Assembly (NCBI GenBank): GCA_002282565.1
Contig: NCJT01000003.1
Span: 10,592 to 74,591 of the forward strand
Direction: 5' to 3'
DNA: 64,000 nt
From: Hyphomonas sp. 34-62-18
GTDB lineage: Bacteria; Pseudomonadota; Alphaproteobacteria; Caulobacterales; Hyphomonadaceae
This document shows positions 8,522-61,231 of the stretch, in pieces. Numbering within the stretch: position 1 is the stretch's first letter; each line of letters begins with the position of its first letter. The notes beneath the pieces were generated by a model, which saw nothing but the letters and a program-made list of their open reading frames with translations, was not told where the DNA came from and made no database searches. The position numbers and the translations under genes were made by a program.

Positions 8522-9669
8522 ATCCGCGCGAGGTTGTTCTTCTGCATATCAGATGATCCGCCTACGATTGGCATGCCCAGAAGATCACGCAGGTTGCGCT
8601 CGATATCGTAAGCATCCGACAGACCATAGGCCCCGATCACCTGCTGACAGGCGAGGCCAATCTCAACGCCGGTATCGGCCACATAGAGCTTTGCCATCGC
8701 CGTCTCTGACGAGCAGGGCTGGCCCGTGCCCGCGAGCCACGCGGCGTGATAGAGCATGTGGCGGCAGGCGGCGAGTTTCGTCCGGGCGGTGACGAGCTTG
8801 TGGGCAATTGCCTGATGCTGGCCTATGCGCTTGCCGAACTGTTCGCGCTCGCCGGCATAGCGCCAGGCTTCCTCCAGCGCGGCGCGGGCAAGGCCGAAGG
8901 CGACTGCCGTGATCTCGATCTTCTCCACGTCCAGCGCGCGGCCGGCGAGCGCCTCCCAGCCTTTGTTCCATTTCTCCGGCCCACCGACAATGGCCGTTTC
9001 GGGAAGGCGCACATCATCCAGGAACACATCCATCGAATGGGTATAGCGCAGGTTCGCATGCTCGATCGGCGCCATGGTGACGCCTTTTGCCTTTGTCGGC
9101 ACAAGGACGAAGGTAAGGTTACCATGCCGTGCGCCCGGCTCACCGGAGCGGCAGAGGCAGTAGATATAGTCCGCCCAGTCCGCCCCGGTACACCAGCGCT
9201 TGGCGCCCTGGATGACGATCTCACCCCCCTGGCGCTCCACGCGCGTCTCGACGCTTGGCAGGTCTCCGCCGACATTCGGCTCCGACAGGCCATAGGCGAG
9301 GAAAAGTTCCCCGCGCGCCAGCTTCGGCAGCAGCTCTTCTTTCTGCGCCTTCGATCCGTTCTCGGAAATATTTAGCCCGCCATAGAAGGCGGCATGGATA
9401 TAAGGCCCGGCCATGCTGGGCCCGCCCTGGCAGAGTTCCTCGATCACGGCGGCGGCGGCGTAAATGTCCTCCCCCTGCCCGCCATACTCTTCCGGAATGG
9501 TCAGGCCGATCAGCCCCATTTCCGCAATCTCGCGGAAAAGGCCCCTGTCCCACGTAGCCTCACGGTCCCATTGCCGGCGCTTCTCGCGCGGCATCTTTTC
9601 GGCCACCCAGCGGGAAAGCTGGCGGCGGATTTCAGTCACATGCTCAGGTTCTGCGGCAAAATAGGTCAT
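8509..9669 (-). CDS. Acyl-CoA dehydrogenase
   Basis: 386 aa with canonical ACAD blocks: YGLSEPNVGGD, QFGKRIGQHQAIAHKL, and C-terminal IVGGSSDMQKNNLAR. Confidence 0.9.
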   Translation of the reverse strand: MTYFAAEPEHVTEIRRQLSRWVAEKMPREKRRQWDREATWDRGLFREIAEMGLIGLTIPEEYGGQGEDIYAAAAVIEELCQGGPSMAGPYIHAAFYGGLNISENGSKAQKEELLPKLARGELFLAYGLSEPNVGGDLPSVETRVERQGGEIVIQGAKRWCTGADWADYIYCLCRSGEPGARHGNLTFVLVPTKAKGVTMAPIEHANLRYTHSMDVFLDDVRLPETAIVGGPEKWNKGWEALAGRALDVEKIEITAVAFGLARAALEEAWRYAGEREQFGKRIGQHQAIAHKLVTARTKLAACRHMLYHAAWLAGTGQPCSSETAMAKLYVADTGVEIGLACQQVIGAYGLSDAYDIERNLRDLLGMPIVGGSSDMQKNNLARMWRL

Positions 9670-9683
9670 GCCGCACTTCTGAG

Positions 9684-10550
9684 CTAACCGCCGATTTCGT
9701 CAAGGCTGAACGGCGTGGACTGGTAGGTCTGGTTGATCCAGTTGCCAAACAGGAGATGGGCATGGCTTCGCCAGCGATTGAGCGGCTGGCGGGTGGGATC
9801 GTCGCCGGGGAAATAGCCATAGGGCACCTGGATCTGCTTGCCCGCTTCCCGGTCGCGCTCAAACTCCTCCTTCAGGGAGAAGGAATCGTATTCAACATGG
9901 TTGAACATGAAGAGGCTACGCCGCGCACGGTCCTCCAGCAGGCAGGGGCCGGTATCATCACTGTCAATCAGCAGGCGGAGTTCGGGGCGCTCCAGCACTT
10001 CGCTGCGGCGCACCTCTGTCCAGCGTGAAACGGGAATGGAAAAATCATCCGAGAAGCCCGAAAGATAGGGCGAGGCCGGATCAAGATTGCGGTGGCGGAA
10101 TACGCCGAAGGCTTTGGCCTCGAGCAGATGTTTCGGCAGGCCGTGGAAATGATAGGCCGCCGCCATCGCGCCCCAACAGATATAGAACGGCGAATGCACG
10201 TTCGTCTGTGTCCAGTCGAAGATCCGGGTCAGCTCGTCCCAGTAATTGACCTCTTCAAAGGGCAGGGTTTCCACTGGAGCGCCGGTCACGATGAAGCCGT
10301 CAAACTTCCGCTCCCGGATTTCTTCCCAGGTCTGATAGAAGCTGATCAGATGTTCCTGCGAGGTGTTAGAGGCGCCGATCAGCCGGGCGATCTGCGTCTC
10401 GGTGCGGATCTTGTTGGGCATGAGGTTCAGGAGGCCGATCTGTAGCGGCCGGATGTCCTGCCGGATGGCATCGGTCTCACGCATCACCGCAACGCCTTCT
10501 TTGAGAAGGGTTTCACGCGCGGGCAGCGTATCGGGAATGCGGATCGGCAT
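9684..10550 (-). CDS. metA: Homoserine O-acyltransferase MetA (succinyl/acetyl), with an apparent in-frame internal deletion
   Basis: [69 protein letters not shown] is typical MetA. It is 288 aa and lacks the conserved PLQV..(strand)..R segment between RLIGAS and NTSQEHL. Confidence 0.9.
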
Positions 10551-10644
10551 GGCTCAAACGTCCTCTTCGGCCCGCTTCAGGTCTCACAAACAACGCCGCA
10601 ATTCAGGGGAAAGGCAGGCCCGGAACCCCGGCTTCCCTGCTTCT

Positions 10645-10710
10645 CGGCCCTTTAGCGAGTTGTTTAACGTGGCTGCAAGCCGGCCGGCCAAATCACCACG
10701 AAAGCGCATT
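10645..10710 (-). promoter_or_regulatory. SAM-II (SAM-alpha, metA-type) riboswitch
   Basis: The minus strand reads UCGUGGUGAUUUGGCCGGCCGGCUUGCAGCCACGUUAAACAACUCGCUAAAGG. It has the GAUUUGGC, GGCUUG and GCUAAAG hallmarks and a GUGG/CCAC P1, about 100 nt upstream of metA. Confidence 0.75.
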
Positions 10711-10742
10711 TAGTACGGGCAAGGCGCGGCGTCAAACCTTCT

Positions 10743-10764
10743 CCCCTCTCCCTGGAGAGAGGGG
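10743..10764. repeat. REP-like imperfect palindrome (CCCCTCTC..GAGAGGGG)
   Basis: CCCCTCTC (10743-10750) pairs with GAGAGGGG (10757-10764). Same motif class as 39001..39046 and 56402..56425. Confidence 0.5.
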
Positions 10765-10769
10765 GTGTT

Positions 10770-11582
10770 TCACTCCCCCGTCAGCTTCGCGGCCCGCCGC
10801 TCCTTGAACGCCGCCACGGCTTCTTTCCGGTCGCCCAGATAGTTTGACACGCTCTCCCAGCCGATGCTGGCGTCCATCAGCTGCGCGGCCAGCGCGCGGA
10901 GCGGAATGTTCGCGGTCGTCTTCGTCCAGCGCACAGCCCATTTGGGATTGGCCATGATCTTGCCGACGATCTCGTCCACTTTGGCGTCGAGTTCCCCGGC
11001 CGGTACGGCATAGTTGATAAGGCCGAGCGCCTTGGCTTCTGGCGCACTCAAGAGGTCGCCCGTCATCAGCAGTTCCTTCGCCTTGGCAAAGCCGATCAGC
11101 TGCGGCCAGATCAGCGCGCCGCCATCCCCGGCCACGAGCCCCACCTTCACATGCGGATCGCCGATCTTGGCCGTCTCGTCGGCAATGATCACATCGCAGA
11201 GCAGCGCGATGGTGGCGCCGAGGCCTGCGGCAGCACCGTTCATGCGGCAGATGATCGGTTTTTCCATTTGCAGCAGCGTCACCACGATCTGCTTGGCATC
11301 CCAGCCGATGGCGCGGAAGCGTTCGGGGTGGGCAATCTGCTCCTCGAACCAGTCGAAATCCCCGCCCGCACAAAAGGCCCGGCCTTTGGCGGAGAGGATG
11401 ATGAGATCACTCTCGGTATCACGCTGCAGGCAGTTGAACACGAGCGCAAGCTCTGTGTGCATCGCCTCGTCCACACCGTTCACCGGGTGATCGGAGGTGA
11501 TGTAGGCGGTCAGCACACGCCCCTTCCGCTCGAAGGTGAAACGTTCCCATTTCTCTGCCGTGATGTCGTAGTGCGCGCTCAT
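10770..11582 (-). CDS. Enoyl-CoA hydratase/isomerase (crotonase) family protein
   Basis: 270 aa. Oxyanion-hole segments FCAGGDF and NGAAAGLGATIALLCD. Confidence 0.85.
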   Translation of the reverse strand: MSAHYDITAEKWERFTFERKGRVLTAYITSDHPVNGVDEAMHTELALVFNCLQRDTESDLIILSAKGRAFCAGGDFDWFEEQIAHPERFRAIGWDAKQIVVTLLQMEKPIICRMNGAAAGLGATIALLCDVIIADETAKIGDPHVKVGLVAGDGGALIWPQLIGFAKAKELLMTGDLLSAPEAKALGLINYAVPAGELDAKVDEIVGKIMANPKWAVRWTKTTANIPLRALAAQLMDASIGWESVSNYLGDRKEAVAAFKERRAAKLTGE

Positions 11583-27524: not shown

Positions 27525-28205
27525 ATGCTCCCCCCCGATCACGCCTGTCTTCTTCTTTGCGACCTCAAAGGGTCAAGTGGTTTCGGCCCTGAAAAAGGGG
27601 GTGAGCTTCTTGCGCAACTGGAAGCCCTGCTGGTTCAGCTGAACGAACGCCACGCAGCTGATATCATTCTGCCGTTGGAGATTAGTTACGGTGACGAAAT
27701 TGCCAGTTTGCTCCTCCATCCGGAGGCCGCTTTCGAGATTGTGCGGGCGCTGCGGAAGGGGCTGGGCGTTCAAATGGCATTCCGCTTCGCGGTCGTGTTC
27801 GGCCAGATTGGGGCCAGAACCTCCAATATCCGCCAAATCGGCGGGGAGGTTTTCACTATCGCCAATGCAGCCATCAGCCGGCTGAAGCGGCAGAACCGGT
27901 TTGGCGAGTGGCATATTTTCAAAGATGCCCGCGATATTGAACTCACCCTGCTGACAAACCTCTGCCAAGGTTTCATCGCCCGGATGACGGACTATCAGTT
28001 TCTAGTTTACATCCTCTTGGCCGAAGGCTTGTCACAGAAAGCGGTCGCCGAACGGCTGGGCAAATATCCGCAATCAGTTTCTGACGCGGTCCGCCGGGCC
28101 GAAATAGATCTTGTGATCGAAGCAGAAAATCAAATAATCGATCGACTGCGAGCCTATAATCAATCGAATCTCGTTGTTTTGGAGAAATCAATTGAATCCA
28201 ATTGA
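27525..28205 (+). CDS. SatD-family protein: nucleotidyl-cyclase-like N-domain fused to a C-terminal HTH
   Basis: 226 aa. LLLCDLKGSSGF and ISYGDEIASLL acidic motifs, then FRFAVVFGQIG, fit the SatD N-domain pattern (GDxxxS..GDEFQ..RFGIG). The C-terminal LSQKAVAERLGKYPQSVSDAVRRAE is a sigma-r4/LuxR-like HTH. Confidence 0.6.
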   Translation: MLPPDHACLLLCDLKGSSGFGPEKGGELLAQLEALLVQLNERHAADIILPLEISYGDEIASLLLHPEAAFEIVRALRKGLGVQMAFRFAVVFGQIGARTSNIRQIGGEVFTIANAAISRLKRQNRFGEWHIFKDARDIELTLLTNLCQGFIARMTDYQFLVYILLAEGLSQKAVAERLGKYPQSVSDAVRRAEIDLVIEAENQIIDRLRAYNQSNLVVLEKSIESN

Positions 28206-28206
28206 T
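28159..28206. promoter_or_regulatory. Second copy of the 48-bp double-palindrome cassette, inside the SatD 3' end
   Basis: ATCAATcgaatctcGTTGTT (28159..28178, degenerate) and ATCAATtgaatccaATTGAT (28187..28206, perfect). Again 28 nt apart. 32 of 48 positions are identical to 27475..27522. Confidence 0.55.
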
Positions 28207-28578
28207 ATAGCCATCCTGGTCGGCATGGCGCTTGGATCGCATATTCTCTCCACGCTGATCATCCGCCTCGGCATCCCCCGCCTCAAATCCGGCGATATCC
28301 CCGCCACCGAGGGCGGCGCCCTTCCCGAGAGCACCAAGGGCCGCGTCTTTGATCTGGGATCGACCGGCTTCTGGATTGGGCTGTGTGAAACACTCCTGAT
28401 TTTCATTCTGGTCAGTGCCCAGCAGTTCAGCGCCCTGGCGATTATCATCGGGGTCAAACAGTTCGTGCGTAGCGACAAGATCCAGCAGAACCCGTCTTAC
28501 TACCTGCTCGGTACCTTCTGCAACCTGACGATCGCCACACTGTTCGCCCTAACGGCAAACCAGATCATCAGCGGCTGA
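28192..28578 (+). CDS. Small 4-TM membrane protein, partner of the SatD-like gene (possibly DUF3307/SatC-like)
   Basis: The TTG at 28192 follows a GGAGA SD (alternatives TTG 28174, ATG 28225). It overlaps the SatD stop (28203-28205). Four predicted helices. Family not verifiable by eye. Confidence 0.5.
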   Translation: MNPIDIAILVGMALGSHILSTLIIRLGIPRLKSGDIPATEGGALPESTKGRVFDLGSTGFWIGLCETLLIFILVSAQQFSALAIIIGVKQFVRSDKIQQNPSYYLLGTFCNLTIATLFALTANQIISG

Positions 28579-54237: not shown

Positions 54238-54344
54238 TGGTTTTAGTAGCCCCTGCTCAACCTGTCCGCTTAACCAATGCGCGCCCGCGCCAAAGGTTCC
54301 CCGGCCCCCTTCCCCCGGCGCCGCAATCTGCGTATGGTCTGCCC

Positions 54345-54440
54345 ATCCGAGGGGCGCGCATGGCAAGCGCTGAGATGGGGCCGATACCGCTCCAGCACCC
54401 TTTGAACCTGATCCGGGTCGCGCCGGCGTAGGAACGGAAA
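54345..54440 (+). promoter_or_regulatory. TPP (THI-box) riboswitch
   Basis: GGGGCGCG..GCUGAGA..ACCCUUUGAACCUGAUCCGGGUCGCGCCGGCGUAGGAA immediately upstream of thiC. Confidence 0.9.
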
Positions 54441-54452
54441 CCGAGACGCTAA

Positions 54453-56384
<1,932 letters not shown>

Positions 56385-56401
56385 TTTCCAATCCCCAAAA
56401 T

Positions 56402-56425
56402 ACCTCTCCCGCTCGCGGGAGAGGT
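56402..56425. repeat. REP-like palindrome ACCTCTCCCGC-TC-GCGGGAGAGGT
   Basis: 11-bp arms, immediately after the thiC stop and at the left edge of the low-GC island. Confidence 0.6.
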
Positions 56426-56488
56426 AAGCCCGGCCAAAGGACTGTGGCAAGGCACAGCCAAATCAGCGGATAATGCGTGAATTCCTCG

Positions 56489-57484
56489 TCATAGCGAGAA
56501 GAAGCCTTCCCTAGCCGCCACGCCTAAGTATTTTGGGACATCAGGCGTCCCCTGCCAAATTCTACTTTCTGGCAAACCCATGCGCTTCATCGCCATGAAG
56601 CCGTTCATTTCGCCCGAGAAGTTGAGGGCCGACGCTTTTGAACCCCATTGGCCAGCCTGCAGTAGAGCGCAGTTATTTTCTTCAAATGCAAAGCCCACGC
56701 TGTAGACCGATCCACACTCTTTCAGGAGTTCGACCGCTTCAATTGCCGCAGGAGGCCTCTCAGCAAGACTATCAAGAATGAATTTTATGTTCTCAATCTG
56801 CTTTCGATAAAATGTTGGAGACAGCGAATCGTTGCTGATCTCATCTAGCTTACCATGAACATGCACAACTCGTGGTAAAAGCTCATCCGGTGTATCGCGA
56901 AAACGTTCATTGTTTCTGACAAACCATCCAAAGCTCTCTTCGATCGCTCGATCATAGTTCAATGTGACAAAAGAAAGCCTATTTTGCTCAAGGTCGTCTG
57001 GGTTTTTGGCACCTGACAGGAATTGATTCGCAAGAATGCCCAACCAGTTCGGCCTGCGGGGCCCAGTGGTGATGTAGGGACTTCGCCAAGGGAAACACCT
57101 CTCTCCATATCTCCAGCCGGTATTTTTCTGAAGCATCTGGAAATGTGATTTTATGAGCATCCAAGCTGTGAAGTACTTGGAGATCTTGCTTCTGCTGGGG
57201 TTCTGGTACGCATACAGATCAATCGAGTAACTTGAACTGGAGCTAAGGTGCTCAATCAGTGACGGAAAAGCGTTTCGCGCCTCTCCATCATTTGCGAAAC
57301 AAACAAAATCCCAAAACGACGCAAAGTACTGAGCAAAGTTATCAGATTGGTTGTCTCTGGTTCTAGGGTCTTCCGCAGCGGCAGCGGAATAAATCTGATC
57401 TCCTGTTGGCAAACCGAATTCTGCCGACGCGCCCGCACCGACAAGAATGACCGTGGGCTTGATGAACATTTTGCGCATTTCCAT
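56489..57484 (-). CDS. Stand-alone SIR2-like (SIR2_2 / DHS-like NAD-binding fold) protein, putative NADase
   Basis: ORF 56489..57628 trimmed to Met 57484 (alternatives 57478, 57469). Ordered motifs VILVGAGASAEFGLPTG, TLNYD, VVHVHG, SVGFAFEE. The gene is markedly GC-poor. Confidence 0.7.
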   Translation of the reverse strand: MEMRKMFIKPTVILVGAGASAEFGLPTGDQIYSAAAAEDPRTRDNQSDNFAQYFASFWDFVCFANDGEARNAFPSLIEHLSSSSSYSIDLYAYQNPSRSKISKYFTAWMLIKSHFQMLQKNTGWRYGERCFPWRSPYITTGPRRPNWLGILANQFLSGAKNPDDLEQNRLSFVTLNYDRAIEESFGWFVRNNERFRDTPDELLPRVVHVHGKLDEISNDSLSPTFYRKQIENIKFILDSLAERPPAAIEAVELLKECGSVYSVGFAFEENNCALLQAGQWGSKASALNFSGEMNGFMAMKRMGLPESRIWQGTPDVPKYLGVAAREGFFSL

Positions 57485-57570
57485 CTTGGATATGCAATCA
57501 AGAATAGAATGACTCGCCCAAAGGCACAATGTGATGTTTCGAGAGCCAATATTGTATTCCGGCCTCAGGC

Positions 57571-57885
57571 CTAATGATTCAACAAGCTCGCCCCCATCAC
57601 CCCATTCGCCCGTCTCGCCTTGGCCCATTCAAAGCTCCCGGCACGGAAGGCGCGGCAGGCTTCGGGGCGGTCTTCGTAGATGCTGCAGGCGGCCTTGCCG
57701 TTTGACAGGTCAAGGTGGATGCAGTGGCCGCAATCGAAGCGGACGAAGGTGCGCCCGTCTTCGGTGAAGAGGCCTGTCTCAGGCAGGGAGCGGCCAGCGT
57801 CCCAGGGGAGGAGTTCGAGATAGCGGGGGTTCCGGCTGAAACAGCAGGCGCCGCAGGACACACAGTCAAACGACACATCGGGCAT
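57571..57885 (-). CDS. YkgJ family cysteine-cluster protein (UPF0153)
   Basis: 104 aa. CVSCGACCF plus later Cys residues (CGHCIHL, CSIYEDRPEACRAF). Confidence 0.75.
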   Translation of the reverse strand: MPDVSFDCVSCGACCFSRNPRYLELLPWDAGRSLPETGLFTEDGRTFVRFDCGHCIHLDLSNGKAACSIYEDRPEACRAFRAGSFEWAKARRANGVMGASLLNH

Positions 57886-58564: not shown

Positions 58565-59389
58565 CTAAACCGCGGGCACCTGCGGGCTGAGGCGCCCGCC
58601 CATGCGGATCGGCTCCACGCGCAGGGCGAGGCCTGTGCGGTCATCCGTTTCCACAAAGGTTCCGCACAGCGTGCCCTCGCCAAGGGCGGGCTGATACCGC
58701 TCTCCGGGCAGCTGCGTGGTGAAGCGGTATAGCGACATTTCCTTCTGCATACCGATCACCGAATCATAATCCCCGCACATGCCGGCATCGGTGTGATAGG
58801 CGGTGCCGCCATTGAGGATCATTGTGTCGGCCGTGGGCACATGCGTATGGCTGCCCACCACAAGGCTTGCGCGGCCATCACAGTGATGGCCCATCGCCAT
58901 CTTCTCGCTGGTCGCCTCGCAATGCATGTCCACGATCACAGCATCAGCCACCGTGCCCAGCGGCATCTGGTCGAGCGCCGCATCGGCGGCGGCAAAGGGG
59001 CAGGCCAGCGCCTGGCGCATGAAGACATTCCCCTGCAGCTGCACAACGCCCACCCGGCGCCCATCGGGCAACATGTAGAGCGCGGCCCCCTTCCCCGGCG
59101 CGCCGGCACCGGCGGGATAGTTTGCCGGGCGCAGCAGGCGCGGCTCCCGCTCGATATAGGTGAGCGCCTCGCGCTGGTCCCAGGCATGGTCGCCCAGCGT
59201 CAGACAGTCCGCGCCCGCGCCGAAAAATTCCTCCGCAATCTGACGGGTGAGGCCAAAGCCCCCAGCGGCGTTCTCGCCATTGACCACGACGAAATCGAGC
59301 CCCAGCCGCGCCCGCAGCTCTGGCAGATAGTCCAGCACCGCCGCCCGGCCGGGCTTGCCGACCACATCTCCGAAAAAGGCCAGTTTCAT
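58565..59389 (-). CDS. YmdB-like metallophosphoesterase (TIGR00282 family)
   Basis: MKLAFFGDVVGKPGR, VVVNGENAAGG, GDHAWD and GSHTHVPT motifs. Confidence 0.85.
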   Translation of the reverse strand: MKLAFFGDVVGKPGRAAVLDYLPELRARLGLDFVVVNGENAAGGFGLTRQIAEEFFGAGADCLTLGDHAWDQREALTYIEREPRLLRPANYPAGAGAPGKGAALYMLPDGRRVGVVQLQGNVFMRQALACPFAAADAALDQMPLGTVADAVIVDMHCEATSEKMAMGHHCDGRASLVVGSHTHVPTADTMILNGGTAYHTDAGMCGDYDSVIGMQKEMSLYRFTTQLPGERYQPALGEGTLCGTFVETDDRTGLALRVEPIRMGGRLSPQVPAV

Positions 59390-59485
59390 GCGCTCAAGCC
59401 TATGACTCCATTATCCCTCAAAGAAAAGGGCGCGGCAGCCATTCCGCCCCGCGCCCCTTCCGTAAATGCCGCTTCCGGCAATGGC

Positions 59486-61231
59486 TTACTTGTTGCCAGC
59501 CGCGAAGCCGAGCTTCGTCTTGTCCAGCTTCTTCTCCGGATCGGTCGGGTTGGAAGCCGCATCCATGAAGGTCTGCGCGGTCACCGGCGTTTGCGGCGTC
59601 ATGCTGATCGTCAGGGTCTTGGGATCCTGAACGAAGCTGGAAATCGCGGTGGCAAGCTCTGTGATAACGGCCACATCAATGCCGGTGCCCGAAGCGGCCA
59701 TCGGCGCCATCGCCATCATGCCGGAAACCTGCGCGCGCAGATTGGCCGGATCTTCGCCCGATTGGGCCGCATAGGCGTTGAGGGCCCGGTTGAAGAAACC
59801 ACTGTCGGCAAACGAGATTTCAAACTGGTGGAAGGCCAGCTTGTTCATCATCGCCTCCACCATGGCGTCGGGATTGGCTTCCAGCTGGGCCGCCGTGGAA
59901 GCAGCTGCGATTTCCTTGGAGCCTTCATACTTGGCCGAAACGTCCAGCTTGAAGCCGTCACTAAGCTGCCAGTAGTTCTTGCCCTTCGGCAGGGTCACGA
60001 TGTCCGCATCCGGATCATAAAGTTGCTCGCCCGCCGCTGTCAGGGTCAGCGTCTCATAGCCAAGGGTTGCCAGGGCTCCGGCAAATTGCTCGCCATCGGG
60101 ATTGTCGCGGGCAGCCACCGTCATCGTGAACGGGTCGGTGGTGATCTTGGTAGCCCGGCCCTGGGCGTCGCGGCCCACATAGGAATTGAACGAAGCCAGG
60201 TCGACGCTGGCGCCGATGATGTCGGCCTTCAGGCCCTTCATCACGGCTGCATCAAAGCCCGGATTGCCCGGATCAGACTGCATCGCTTCGGTCATGGCCG
60301 TGGGGTCGCCCGAGCTGTTGGCAGCTGCAGCGATCAGGCCATAGTCGAGACCGGCAAGGCCAAATCCATCCAGTTTGATATTGACGTCGCCGGAGGTTTC
60401 CTCCGTGAACTGGAAGTTCAGGTTCGACAGGCCGACCTTGCCCGCCTTCTCTTCCTTCAGCCCGTCGATGTAGAACGAGCCAAGGTCAAAACCGCCGGTG
60501 CCGCTCGCATCGCTGATGTCGAGATCGACGTTCTTGATCGCCCAGCGGTCAAAGGACAGCGCTGTGCCTTCCGGGAAATCGGCCGGTTCGCCCTGCCCGA
60601 AGAGGCTCGCCACCCAGGCTGCCGTCTCCGGCGACGGGTTGATCAGTTCGATCGTGCCGACAGAGCCCTTGCTCTGGTCTTCAGATCCCTCAACCGGGGT
60701 CACGCTGATATCGGAGAGGCGCATCAGCGAGAAATTCGCCGCGCCATTGACCATGCCGAGGCCATCGAATTCGAGCTTGGCCGCTTTCACAACCGGTGGC
60801 GGGCCGGCTGGCTCGGTCGCATTCATGCTGGCGCTGTAGTCTTCCAGCGTCATTTCCGAACCGTCATCGGCGATGCCATCGCCGTCATAGTCCATATAGG
60901 AGAAGAGTTCCGCAATCTCCTCGTCGGTGTAGAGCGGCTCGGACGAGCCGGTATCCTGAGGGATCGACAGGATCACATTGGTGAAGACCGCCTTGTCGCC
61001 ATCAATGTCCTTGCTGTCAAAAGACAGCCTCCCGGAACCGGACTCAGCCAGCGAAAATGCCGCGAGAGCCTGAGAAGCGGTAGCTGCATCCCCATTCCGG
61101 AGTGAGACATCTGCCAGTTTGGCGACATCGAATTCAACTGCCGAGAGAGCAGCCTCACCACTCGGCTTGTCTTTCTGCCCACATGCCGTAAGCAAAGTTA
61201 TAGCGATCACGCCGGTGAGCAAATACTTCAT
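59486..61231 (-). CDS. Large lipoprotein, hypothetical
   Basis: ORF trimmed to MKYLLTGVIAITLLTACGQ (lipobox). 581 aa. DYDGDGIADDG calcium-loop-like motif. No family recognised. Confidence 0.6.
   Translation of the reverse strand: MKYLLTGVIAITLLTACGQKDKPSGEAALSAVEFDVAKLADVSLRNGDAATASQALAAFSLAESGSGRLSFDSKDIDGDKAVFTNVILSIPQDTGSSEPLYTDEEIAELFSYMDYDGDGIADDGSEMTLEDYSASMNATEPAGPPPVVKAAKLEFDGLGMVNGAANFSLMRLSDISVTPVEGSEDQSKGSVGTIELINPSPETAAWVASLFGQGEPADFPEGTALSFDRWAIKNVDLDISDASGTGGFDLGSFYIDGLKEEKAGKVGLSNLNFQFTEETSGDVNIKLDGFGLAGLDYGLIAAAANSSGDPTAMTEAMQSDPGNPGFDAAVMKGLKADIIGASVDLASFNSYVGRDAQGRATKITTDPFTMTVAARDNPDGEQFAGALATLGYETLTLTAAGEQLYDPDADIVTLPKGKNYWQLSDGFKLDVSAKYEGSKEIAAASTAAQLEANPDAMVEAMMNKLAFHQFEISFADSGFFNRALNAYAAQSGEDPANLRAQVSGMMAMAPMAASGTGIDVAVITELATAISSFVQDPKTLTISMTPQTPVTAQTFMDAASNPTDPEKKLDKTKLGFAAGNK

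Follow-up and report, generated by a model that had tools for sequence, protein, structure and literature searches.

A stand-alone SIR2-like gene, candidate for a one-gene anti-phage system, in a defence hotspot between thiC and a ykgJ-like gene of Hyphomonas

The stretch of DNA described in this report, which we call the window, is 64,000 nucleotides (64 kb) of contig NCJT01000003.1 from Hyphomonas sp. 34-62-18, and our subject is a stand-alone SIR2-like gene located on its minus strand at 56489..57484. The gene lies between two core genes whose 3' ends converge. On one side is thiC (54477..56384, plus strand; Pfam ThiC_Rad_SAM, 1.9e-184), which is convergent with the SIR2-like gene and 97.6% identical in the close relative Hyphomonas sp. 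DS1.007 (locus L012). On the other side is a ykgJ-like CxxCxxCC gene (57571..57885, minus strand; Pfam PF03692, 5.6e-11). The SIR2-like gene is carried by a variable cassette of low G+C content (GC) at 56385..57586 (1,202 bp, not assigned to a strand, GC 0.487), which is bounded by the stop codon of thiC and by the codon that is fifth from the end in the ykgJ-like gene. The last five ykgJ-like codons (SLLNH; 57574..57588, minus strand) are themselves part of the cassette. We describe the cassette as foreign DNA at a defence-gene hotspot, and its product as a protein that, judged by family profiles and a predicted fold, is a divergent SIR2; with moderate confidence, we read the gene as a one-gene anti-phage system.

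The cassette holds a single credible open reading frame (ORF), on the minus strand and of about 330 amino acids (aa), as had been described in an earlier note made from the sequence. The maximal ORF (56489..57628, minus strand, 379 aa) overlaps the ykgJ-like gene. The deposited annotation (P0001, “hypothetical protein,” 100% identical) starts at 57484 and gives 331 aa. All 13 of 13 homologues begin at the equivalent of M6 (MF...), and so the start at 57469, giving 326 aa, is the likelier one.

The drop in composition that first drew attention to this locus was confirmed at each scale. Across the 64 kb, the mean GC of 1-kb segments is 0.625 (standard deviation, 0.029), and the minimum is the segment starting at 56601. 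In 200-nucleotide segments, GC is 0.43-0.50 within 56600..57500, compared to 0.62-0.67 in thiC and the ykgJ-like gene, and GC at third codon positions is 0.52 in the SIR2-like ORF, compared to 0.73-0.82 in the six adjoining genes. Close homologues found elsewhere likewise have a GC that is 10-15 points below that of their own flanks. No second strongly GC-poor island was found in the 64-kb window.

Comparison with relatives placed the borders of the cassette at 56381-56385 and 57587. Using blastn, homology to L012, to Hyphomonas sp. NPDC076881 (L014), and to a further relative (L016) is lost at window positions 56380, 56345, and 56311, respectively, on the thiC side, i.e., at or just inside the thiC 3' end, and at 57587, 57592, and 57590 on the ykgJ side. 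The island proposed earlier, at 56426..57570, is therefore real as an island, but the relatives place its exact limits slightly outside those positions. The accompanying suggestion that the insertion had rewritten the 3' end of ykgJ is correct, since homology stops at 57587, five codons ahead of the stop, and the tails diverge between genomes. The ykgJ-like product is 84-92% identical in Hyphomonas relatives as far as ...ANGVMG(A); beyond the shared ...RANGVMG(A), the tail is SLLNH in the window, RARDAP in L012, and longer in L014 and in another relative, L020. The thiC tail is likewise replaced in L014 and L020.

A scan for the YkgJ-like protein, taking one genome per species, yielded 41 loci in other genomes, and the SIR2-like gene is present at 0/41 of these. 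In the closest relatives (L012, L014, and L013, H. polymorpha), the flanks are syntenic at 90-98% protein identity (a 604-aa protein, YmdB, DUF4168, and the ykgJ-like gene, with thiC on the opposite side), and other cargo occupies the same junctions, so that the search for an empty site suggested in the earlier note came out in favour of its view. These observations support the idea that a single-gene cassette arrived by horizontal transfer between thiC and the CxxCxxCC/YkgJ-family gene, and the cassette is foreign DNA. An assembly artefact or chimera can be dismissed, as isolate genomes and other metagenome-assembled genomes carry different low-GC cargo at the same two junctions.

Among 13 relatives, the thiC-ykgJ interval measures between 0.6 and 7.7 kb and is usually GC-poor, and its identifiable cargo is overwhelmingly anti-phage. 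One relative carries AbiU (L023, 12727-15357; PADLOC, 2.6e-183), and another has a GmrSD_N+HNH protein (L034, 8029-9312; NsnA, 1.3e-33). A PD-T4-6-like Ser/Thr kinase (3.6e-31) is found with a HEPN_AbiU2 protein in L027 (11542-15308), an AriA/OLD-like ATPase with a Beta protein and an ImmA/IrrE peptidase in L021 (11907-17166), and a DndB-like protein with a D12 methylase in L033 (15367-17831). L017 carries an AAA ATPase resembling PDC-S59, L020 a weak DUF4145-like protein, and L012 and L014 ORFs without a match. Since anti-phage genes of relatives occupy the same junctions, the converging 3' ends of thiC and the ykgJ-like gene are a defence-gene hotspot across the Hyphomonadaceae. The SIR2-like cassette is cargo of that hotspot: a variable segment, between conserved core flanks, at a site that holds known defence genes elsewhere. 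The low-GC hotspot ORFs at L012:10427-11200 (minus strand), L014:10555-11142 and L014:11425-11898 (both plus strand), and L023:12727-13506 (plus strand) are candidates for unknown defence genes; those of 257 aa (L012, with a Gly-rich N terminus), 195 aa, and 259 aa had no Pfam or PADLOC match, and the remaining L014 ORF has 157 aa. With several cargo ORFs that match nothing, the interval is a place to seek new defence genes of the Hyphomonadaceae.

The simplest reading of how the cargo is exchanged is that homologous recombination takes place in the conserved flanking genes. The thiC/ykgJ site showed no integrase, transposase, or tRNA gene, and neither a target-site duplication nor terminal repeats such as those of a mobile element were found; the direct and inverted repeats in 56300..57700 are all 10-17 nucleotides long and imperfect. 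A junction repeat proposed earlier is one among about ten chance-sized repeat families of 10-17 nucleotides. Its sequence CCAAAGGCACA has a chance expectation of 1.3 occurrences in the window, and both copies lie within the island and away from the borders; we conclude that it is at chance level.

Sequence profiles of the family and the predicted fold agree on the nature of the product. A profile of the 14-sequence close family matched KomC in the PDB (7.7e-4), and one of the 80-sequence wider family matched KomC (5.2e-6), KomBC (2e-4), and the SIR2 domain of EfAvs5 (1.7e-3). SIR2_2 (PF13289) matches 13/14 of the close homologues at E<=0.1 and 28/80 of the wider members at E<=0.001, and its cut-off is passed by three of the ten wider relatives scanned (P0090, 33.3 bits; P0110, 25.3 bits; P0027, 25.0 bits). 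The AlphaFold2 model, calculated from the 14-sequence alignment, has a predicted local distance difference test score (pLDDT) of 92.1 and a predicted template modelling score (pTM) of 0.90. Foldseek comparison of this model with the PDB gave 31 hits at E<=1e-3, every one to a SIR2 protein, with probability 1.0 and E values of 2e-5 to 1e-3; the matches include SIR2-HerA (top, 2e-5), KomC, SPARSA, CobB, Sir2Tm, SIRT3, SIRT5, and DSR2. The protein is accordingly a divergent SIR2, and the earlier SIR2-like assignment holds.

In the model, the chain forms one domain with six parallel strands (residues 11-15, 170-174, 205-208, 259-263, 284-288, and 309-311). Between strands 1 and 2 there is an insert of about 140 residues, made up of helices (28-112) and a beta-hairpin (115-129). 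The C-terminal ~110 aa, in which the earlier note had seen a possible sensing part, correspond to strands 4-6 of the SIR2 Rossmann sheet and include the invariant residues G264 and N271, and so they are part of the catalytic fold with no separate sensor. Secondary structure and fold coverage thus do not bear out a C-terminal sensor domain, which we reject: the whole chain is modelled as one SIR2 fold, interrupted by the helical insert. Within the close clade, variation is greatest at residues ~31-50, ~111-130, and ~211-230, and these are better candidates for a recognition surface than is the C terminus.

The active-site motifs occur in the expected order, GAGxS, Asn/Asp, and His-Gly, and align to the same motifs of KomC and EfAvs5; all four motifs quoted in the earlier note are present, in the order and at the places that it gave. 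Conservation was counted over 154 family representatives. The NAD-binding glycine loop, G16-A-G-A-S20 (57425..57439, minus strand), keeps G16, A17, G18, and S20 in 150-151/154. N176-Y177-D178 (56951..56959, minus strand) is equivalent to TQN(I)D of sirtuins and to T140-N141-Y142 of EfAvs5, and it aligns to the NYD of KomC and EfAvs5; N176 is present in 154/154, and Y177, D178, and E182 are each present in at least 144/154. H208-V-H210-G211 (56852..56863, minus strand) comprises the canonical HG histidine, H210, and a family-conserved histidine, H208, and is followed downstream in protein order by the motif VGFAFEE. Residue 208 is His in 151/154, and G211, G264, and N271 are each kept in at least 153/154. 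Two residues of the helical insert are also well conserved, D89 in 154/154 and K103 as Lys in 135 and Arg in 15 of the 154.

Position 210 is more variable, being His in 70, Tyr in 66, and Asn in 14 of the representatives; VHVHG, with both histidines, is found in the window protein and in most of the close clade. H210 aligns to H146 of KomC, and H208 aligns to the His of the EfAvs5 “HING” sequence. EfAvs5 has Asn in place of the usual His at residue 180 and is still an active NADase, and its N141A substitution abolishes defence (PMC11897194). N141 of EfAvs5 corresponds to N176 of the window protein. Because EfAvs5 has H-I-N-G and yet is an NADase, the variation of this motif in the family is compatible with NADase activity; the catalytic histidine may be either H208 or H210.

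Close relatives of the protein are few, only 14 among 5.8 billion proteins searched, and the wider family is large. A profile search of 1.84 billion representatives gave 9,396 members at E<=1e-3, that is, ~9,400 family clusters at 50% identity, and 564 at E<=1e-30. The 150 best-scoring representatives listed range from 181 to 444 aa, and nearly all of them, at 270-445 aa, match over their full length. Their labels are almost wholly “hypothetical protein,” with one member named “SIR2 family protein,” and 52/80 of the wider members scanned have no Pfam match at E<=1e-3. Fourteen viral or proviral contigs carry distant relatives, at 22-26% identity.

We examined 11 homologue contexts, and they are varied. 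A 62%-identical homologue (L001:8001-9029) is convergent with thiC (9244-11121; 87.5% identical to thiC of the window), with no ykgJ-like gene opposite; either the thiC 3' end is the anchor of the hotspot, or the gene has long been at this site and most lineages have since replaced it. A 45%-identical homologue is convergent with ymdB (L007:276-2128), that is, in the neighbourhood of the window but at another junction, and the same protein is found just downstream of an IS3-family transposase pair in L008 (300-2693), the sole IS3 case. Other homologues lie between truB and rpsO (L002), inside an integrase/AAA_25 element (L003), and between a DPRP photolyase-related gene and a glutathione S-transferase (GST) gene (L004 and L005), and distant members, surrounded by housekeeping genes, follow lepA/DUF1697 (L067) and uvrB (L069). 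In Bradyrhizobium (L068:5757-7104), a distant member is part of an integrase element, and a gene for a 77-aa HTH_3 (XRE-type) protein lies 10 bp upstream; this may be a regulator of transcription, of a type that frequently accompanies defence genes, and it is the only context with such a gene.

No neighbouring gene is shared among the 11 contexts, and the upstream neighbours have no Pfam family in common, so we reject a conserved partner gene. The absence of a TIR, HerA, Argonaute, or SLOG partner, remarked on at the outset, was borne out; none of these, and no STAND partner, was found within ~9 kb in the window or beside the 11 homologues. Within ~9 kb, the window encodes housekeeping functions (NAGPA-like, alpha/beta hydrolase, AHSA1, DUF4168, YmdB, and MotA), and these genes are syntenic in relatives that lack the SIR2-like gene.

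Among known systems, the architecture is closest to that of AbiH and sole-Sir2. AbiH, of ~346 aa, resembles the window protein in being the product of a single gene, in its similar size and predicted sirtuin-like fold, and in its location on mobile or variable DNA. It is a single-gene abortive-infection protein of Lactococcus lactis with a sirtuin-like fold by HHpred and AlphaFold, and its mechanism is unknown (PMC13064643). Some family members have weak matches to the AbiH Pfam model (3/80 at E<=1e-3; the best, P0060, has 28.0 bits, and none among those listed reaches the 30.9-bit cut-off), but the window protein has no AbiH match at E<=1 in Pfam (PF14253) or PADLOC. Sole-Sir2, likewise a lone Sir2-like protein, is CRISPR-supervised and has been put forward as a defence system that is complete in itself; its in vitro activity turns NAD+ into ADP-ribose (ADPR), and protection of E. 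coli against T2 and T4 was seen with a close homologue (bioRxiv 10.1101/2024.12.27.630466). As described, sole-Sir2 has ~440 aa, and an additional N-terminal substructure precedes its C-terminal Sir2 domain, whereas in the window protein the Sir2 fold begins at residue ~10 and fills all 331 aa.

In sequence and fold, the closest proteins are KomC and the SIR2 domain of Avs5. KomC (PDB ID 8zsf and 9v0g) gave the best profile match in the PDB and ranks among the top matches by fold; it is a SIR2-only NADase of small size and has the GAGxS, NYD, HG, and G[FY]S motifs in common with the window protein. It has 264 aa and acts in the KomBC filament, triggered by deoxyinosine triphosphate (dITP) made with KomA. 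In contrast, the window protein has the ~140-residue insert, and there is no komA- or komB-like neighbour here or beside the homologues, so that the operon with KomA and KomB that characterizes Kongming is lacking. EfAvs5 (PDB ID 9jap) shares T-N-Y-D and H-x-[N/Y/H]-G, with the conserved His two residues before the canonical position. Avs5 is a proven NADase that is activated by filament formation, but at ~850 aa it also comprises a STAND NTPase and a C-terminal sensor, both of which the window protein lacks, and only the SIR2 part (EfAvs5 residues ~137-266) aligns.

ThsA, DSR1/DSR2, SIR2-HerA (Nezha), and SPARSA are alike in using a SIR2 fold as an NAD+-depleting effector of abortive infection, but each differs in what accompanies that fold. 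ThsA has a C-terminal SLOG/Macro domain and an adjacent TIR gene, thsB; the model of the window protein would leave no room for a further domain, and no TIR or SLOG family occurs in the window neighbours or beside the homologues. DSR1 and DSR2 have ~1,000 aa with an N-terminal SIR2 and a large C-terminal sensor, compared to 326-331 aa here. SIR2-HerA and SPARSA require an adjacent HerA or short pAgo/APAZ gene, and the genes adjacent here are thiC, the ykgJ-like gene, DUF4168, and YmdB. The window protein therefore stands outside the AbiH, sole-Sir2, ThsA, DSR, SIR2-HerA, SPARSA, Kongming, and Avs5 families. It belongs to a stand-alone SIR2 branch that is new and for the most part unannotated, but the kind of system is a known one.

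From this setting, we infer a chemistry, a trigger, and a phenotype, and we consider it somewhat more likely than not that the SIR2-like gene is a one-gene abortive-infection system that acts against phages by hydrolysing NAD+. In uninfected cells, the protein would be held inactive. A cue arising from infection would alter its assembly state, perhaps by oligomerisation or by the building of filaments, for which ThsA, KomBC, and Avs5 are models. The probable reader of that cue would be the insert, which evolves fast (residues ~31-50 and ~111-130). The active site, formed by the G16-S20 loop, N176/Y177/D178, and H208/H210, would then hydrolyse NAD+, and loss of NAD+ would halt phage replication by abortive infection.

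Several observations weigh against this proposal. By itself, the window protein falls short in hidden Markov model (HMM) searches: the earlier note had let its SIR2 assignment hang on a significant SIR2-family HMM hit, and a match to SIR2_2 was indeed found, but at 18.1 bits (E 0.003) it is under the 24.5-bit gathering cut-off, so that the assignment came close to failing on this count. The PADLOC SIR2 models gave weak matches, with E 7e-4 or worse and over the first 40 residues only, there was no NCBIfam match for the window protein, and phmmer with the single sequence against the PDB returned noise only (E of at least 0.5). Since the searches with one protein remain below threshold, the SIR2 assignment rests on the family profiles and the fold. 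The TM-scores of the Foldseek matches are modest (0.40-0.46), because of the large insert. About half of the wider family has Tyr or Asn in place of the HG histidine, and the chemistry may therefore not be classical. The protein as modelled is without a recognisable sensor domain. The small SIR2-only proteins with a solved mechanism (KomC and the SIR2 proteins of SIR2-HerA and SPARSA) all need partners, and none of these is found here. Finally, the hotspot location supports a defence role only indirectly.

The same features have been weighed under other explanations. SIR2-fold enzymes include deacylases and ADP-ribosyltransferases, and there is a small but appreciable chance that the product is instead an NAD+-dependent modifier that ADP-ribosylates or deacylates a specific phage or host target, in which case defence or competition between mobile elements would still be possible. 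The invariant D89 and the K103 of the insert, along with the shift of the histidine from HG to HxxG, do suggest an active site unlike that of classical NADase SIR2s. However, both by sequence and by fold the protein is matched best by defence NADases (KomC, EfAvs5, SIR2-HerA, and DSR2) and not by SirTM-type transferases, the same H-x-N-G belongs to an NADase in EfAvs5, and there is no Zn-ribbon/peptide-binding module of the true sirtuins, nor are there CxxC pairs. We think it slightly less probable again that the protein works as an orphan effector whose activation comes in trans, through a small-molecule signal from an unlinked sensor such as a Thoeris-like TIR or a Kongming-like KomA/B. KomC, the nearest solved relative by sequence, is SIR2-only and needs partners and a nucleotide signal, and the window protein has no sensor domain of its own. 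Set against this are the occurrence of the single-gene cassette in unrelated sites and lineages, with TIR, KomA/B, SLOG, or Macro never nearby in the contexts examined, and the lack of another strongly GC-poor island in the 64-kb window, the part of the genome inspected. If an unlinked partner were needed, single-gene transfers would be useless, which weakens trans activation.

A role outside defence fares worse. That the gene is selfish or neutral hotspot cargo (a toxin, an addiction gene, or a decaying passenger) is improbable, even though nothing ties the protein directly to phages: six family members had no PHROGs match, the BFVD viral folds gave two giant-virus sirtuins only (E 6e-3 to 2e-2), without a significant match, and some of the hotspot cargo of relatives, such as the 257-aa ORF of L012 and the ORFs of L014, has no recognisable function. 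But the ORF is intact and its fold is predicted with high confidence, no antitoxin-sized conserved ORF lies alongside, and most identifiable cargo at the site consists of defence genes. Catalytic-type residues are strictly kept over the 154 representatives, at 20-60% identity, which argues for purifying selection on an enzyme and weakens the passenger reading further. A housekeeping CobB-type sirtuin that is AT-rich by chance is scarcely credible. Foldseek does match CobB and Sir2Tm as well; nonetheless, PF02146, the classical Pfam SIR2 family, has no match at E<=1, the Zn-binding Cys4 module of classical sirtuins is missing, with the helical insert in its place and no CxxC pairs in the sequence, the composition is foreign, and the gene occurs in mobile contexts. 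Because the gene is absent from sister genomes at this locus, this explanation is effectively excluded.

Within the preferred reading, NAD+ hydrolysis in abortive infection, a bolder version can be put forward more tentatively, and we regard it as possible but doubtful: the bare SIR2 fold with its insert may be an autonomous anti-phage system in its own right, which would sense infection through the insert, assemble, and destroy NAD+ using the shifted histidine (HxxG). If this is true, the protein would be the first characterised member of a one-gene immune family of ~9,400 clusters that current defence-annotation tools miss. Nearly all SIR2 NADases of bacterial immunity with a solved mechanism rely on a fused sensor or a partner, and a SIR2-only family in defence hotspots thus poses the question of how a bare effector senses infection and otherwise stays harmless. 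At ~330 aa, the protein is a small and tractable subject for this question. PADLOC, NCBIfam, and mostly Pfam miss the family, so that inventories of defence in environmental Alphaproteobacteria probably undercount it.

The cassette also includes a perfect GC-rich palindrome of 12+12 nucleotides (56401-56412/56415-56426), read on the minus strand as a hairpin with UAUUUU next to it. It lies 63 nucleotides past the stop of the SIR2-like gene and is missing from this position in L012 and L014. The earlier note had taken it for a REP-like (repetitive extragenic palindromic) element, a reading we reject: there is one exact copy in the 64 kb, plus one poor match with three mismatches, and the form on the strand of the gene is that of a terminator. 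The most plausible reading of the palindrome is an intrinsic terminator that belongs to the cassette and may work in both directions, serving thiC as well, although for the 111-nucleotide 3' region the fold z-score is only -1.9. On the upstream side, a scan of the 86-101 nucleotides between ykgJ and the start found no sigma-70-like promoter, and the upstream regions of six homologues have no conserved promoter or RNA element (mean column identity, 42%, with no conserved block). With neither a promoter nor a terminator between the ykgJ-like and SIR2-like genes, read-through is possible; there is no operon, and the SIR2-like gene is monocistronic, or at most transcription of the core ykgJ-like gene extends into it.

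A few features elsewhere in the window may be recorded. The only Rfam match is the thiamine pyrophosphate (TPP) riboswitch at 54340..54451 (plus strand; RF00059, 67.2 bits), directly upstream of thiC and expected for that gene. The segment at 27525..28578 (plus strand) has the second-lowest GC of the window, 0.538 per kb, and encodes a 226-aa ORF and an overlapping 134-aa membrane ORF, with no function assigned. Two long ORFs run antisense to core genes, one of 770 aa (58793..61105, plus strand) opposite YmdB and the 604-aa gene and one of 468 aa (55044..56450, minus strand) opposite thiC, and both are probably artefacts of high GC rather than genes.

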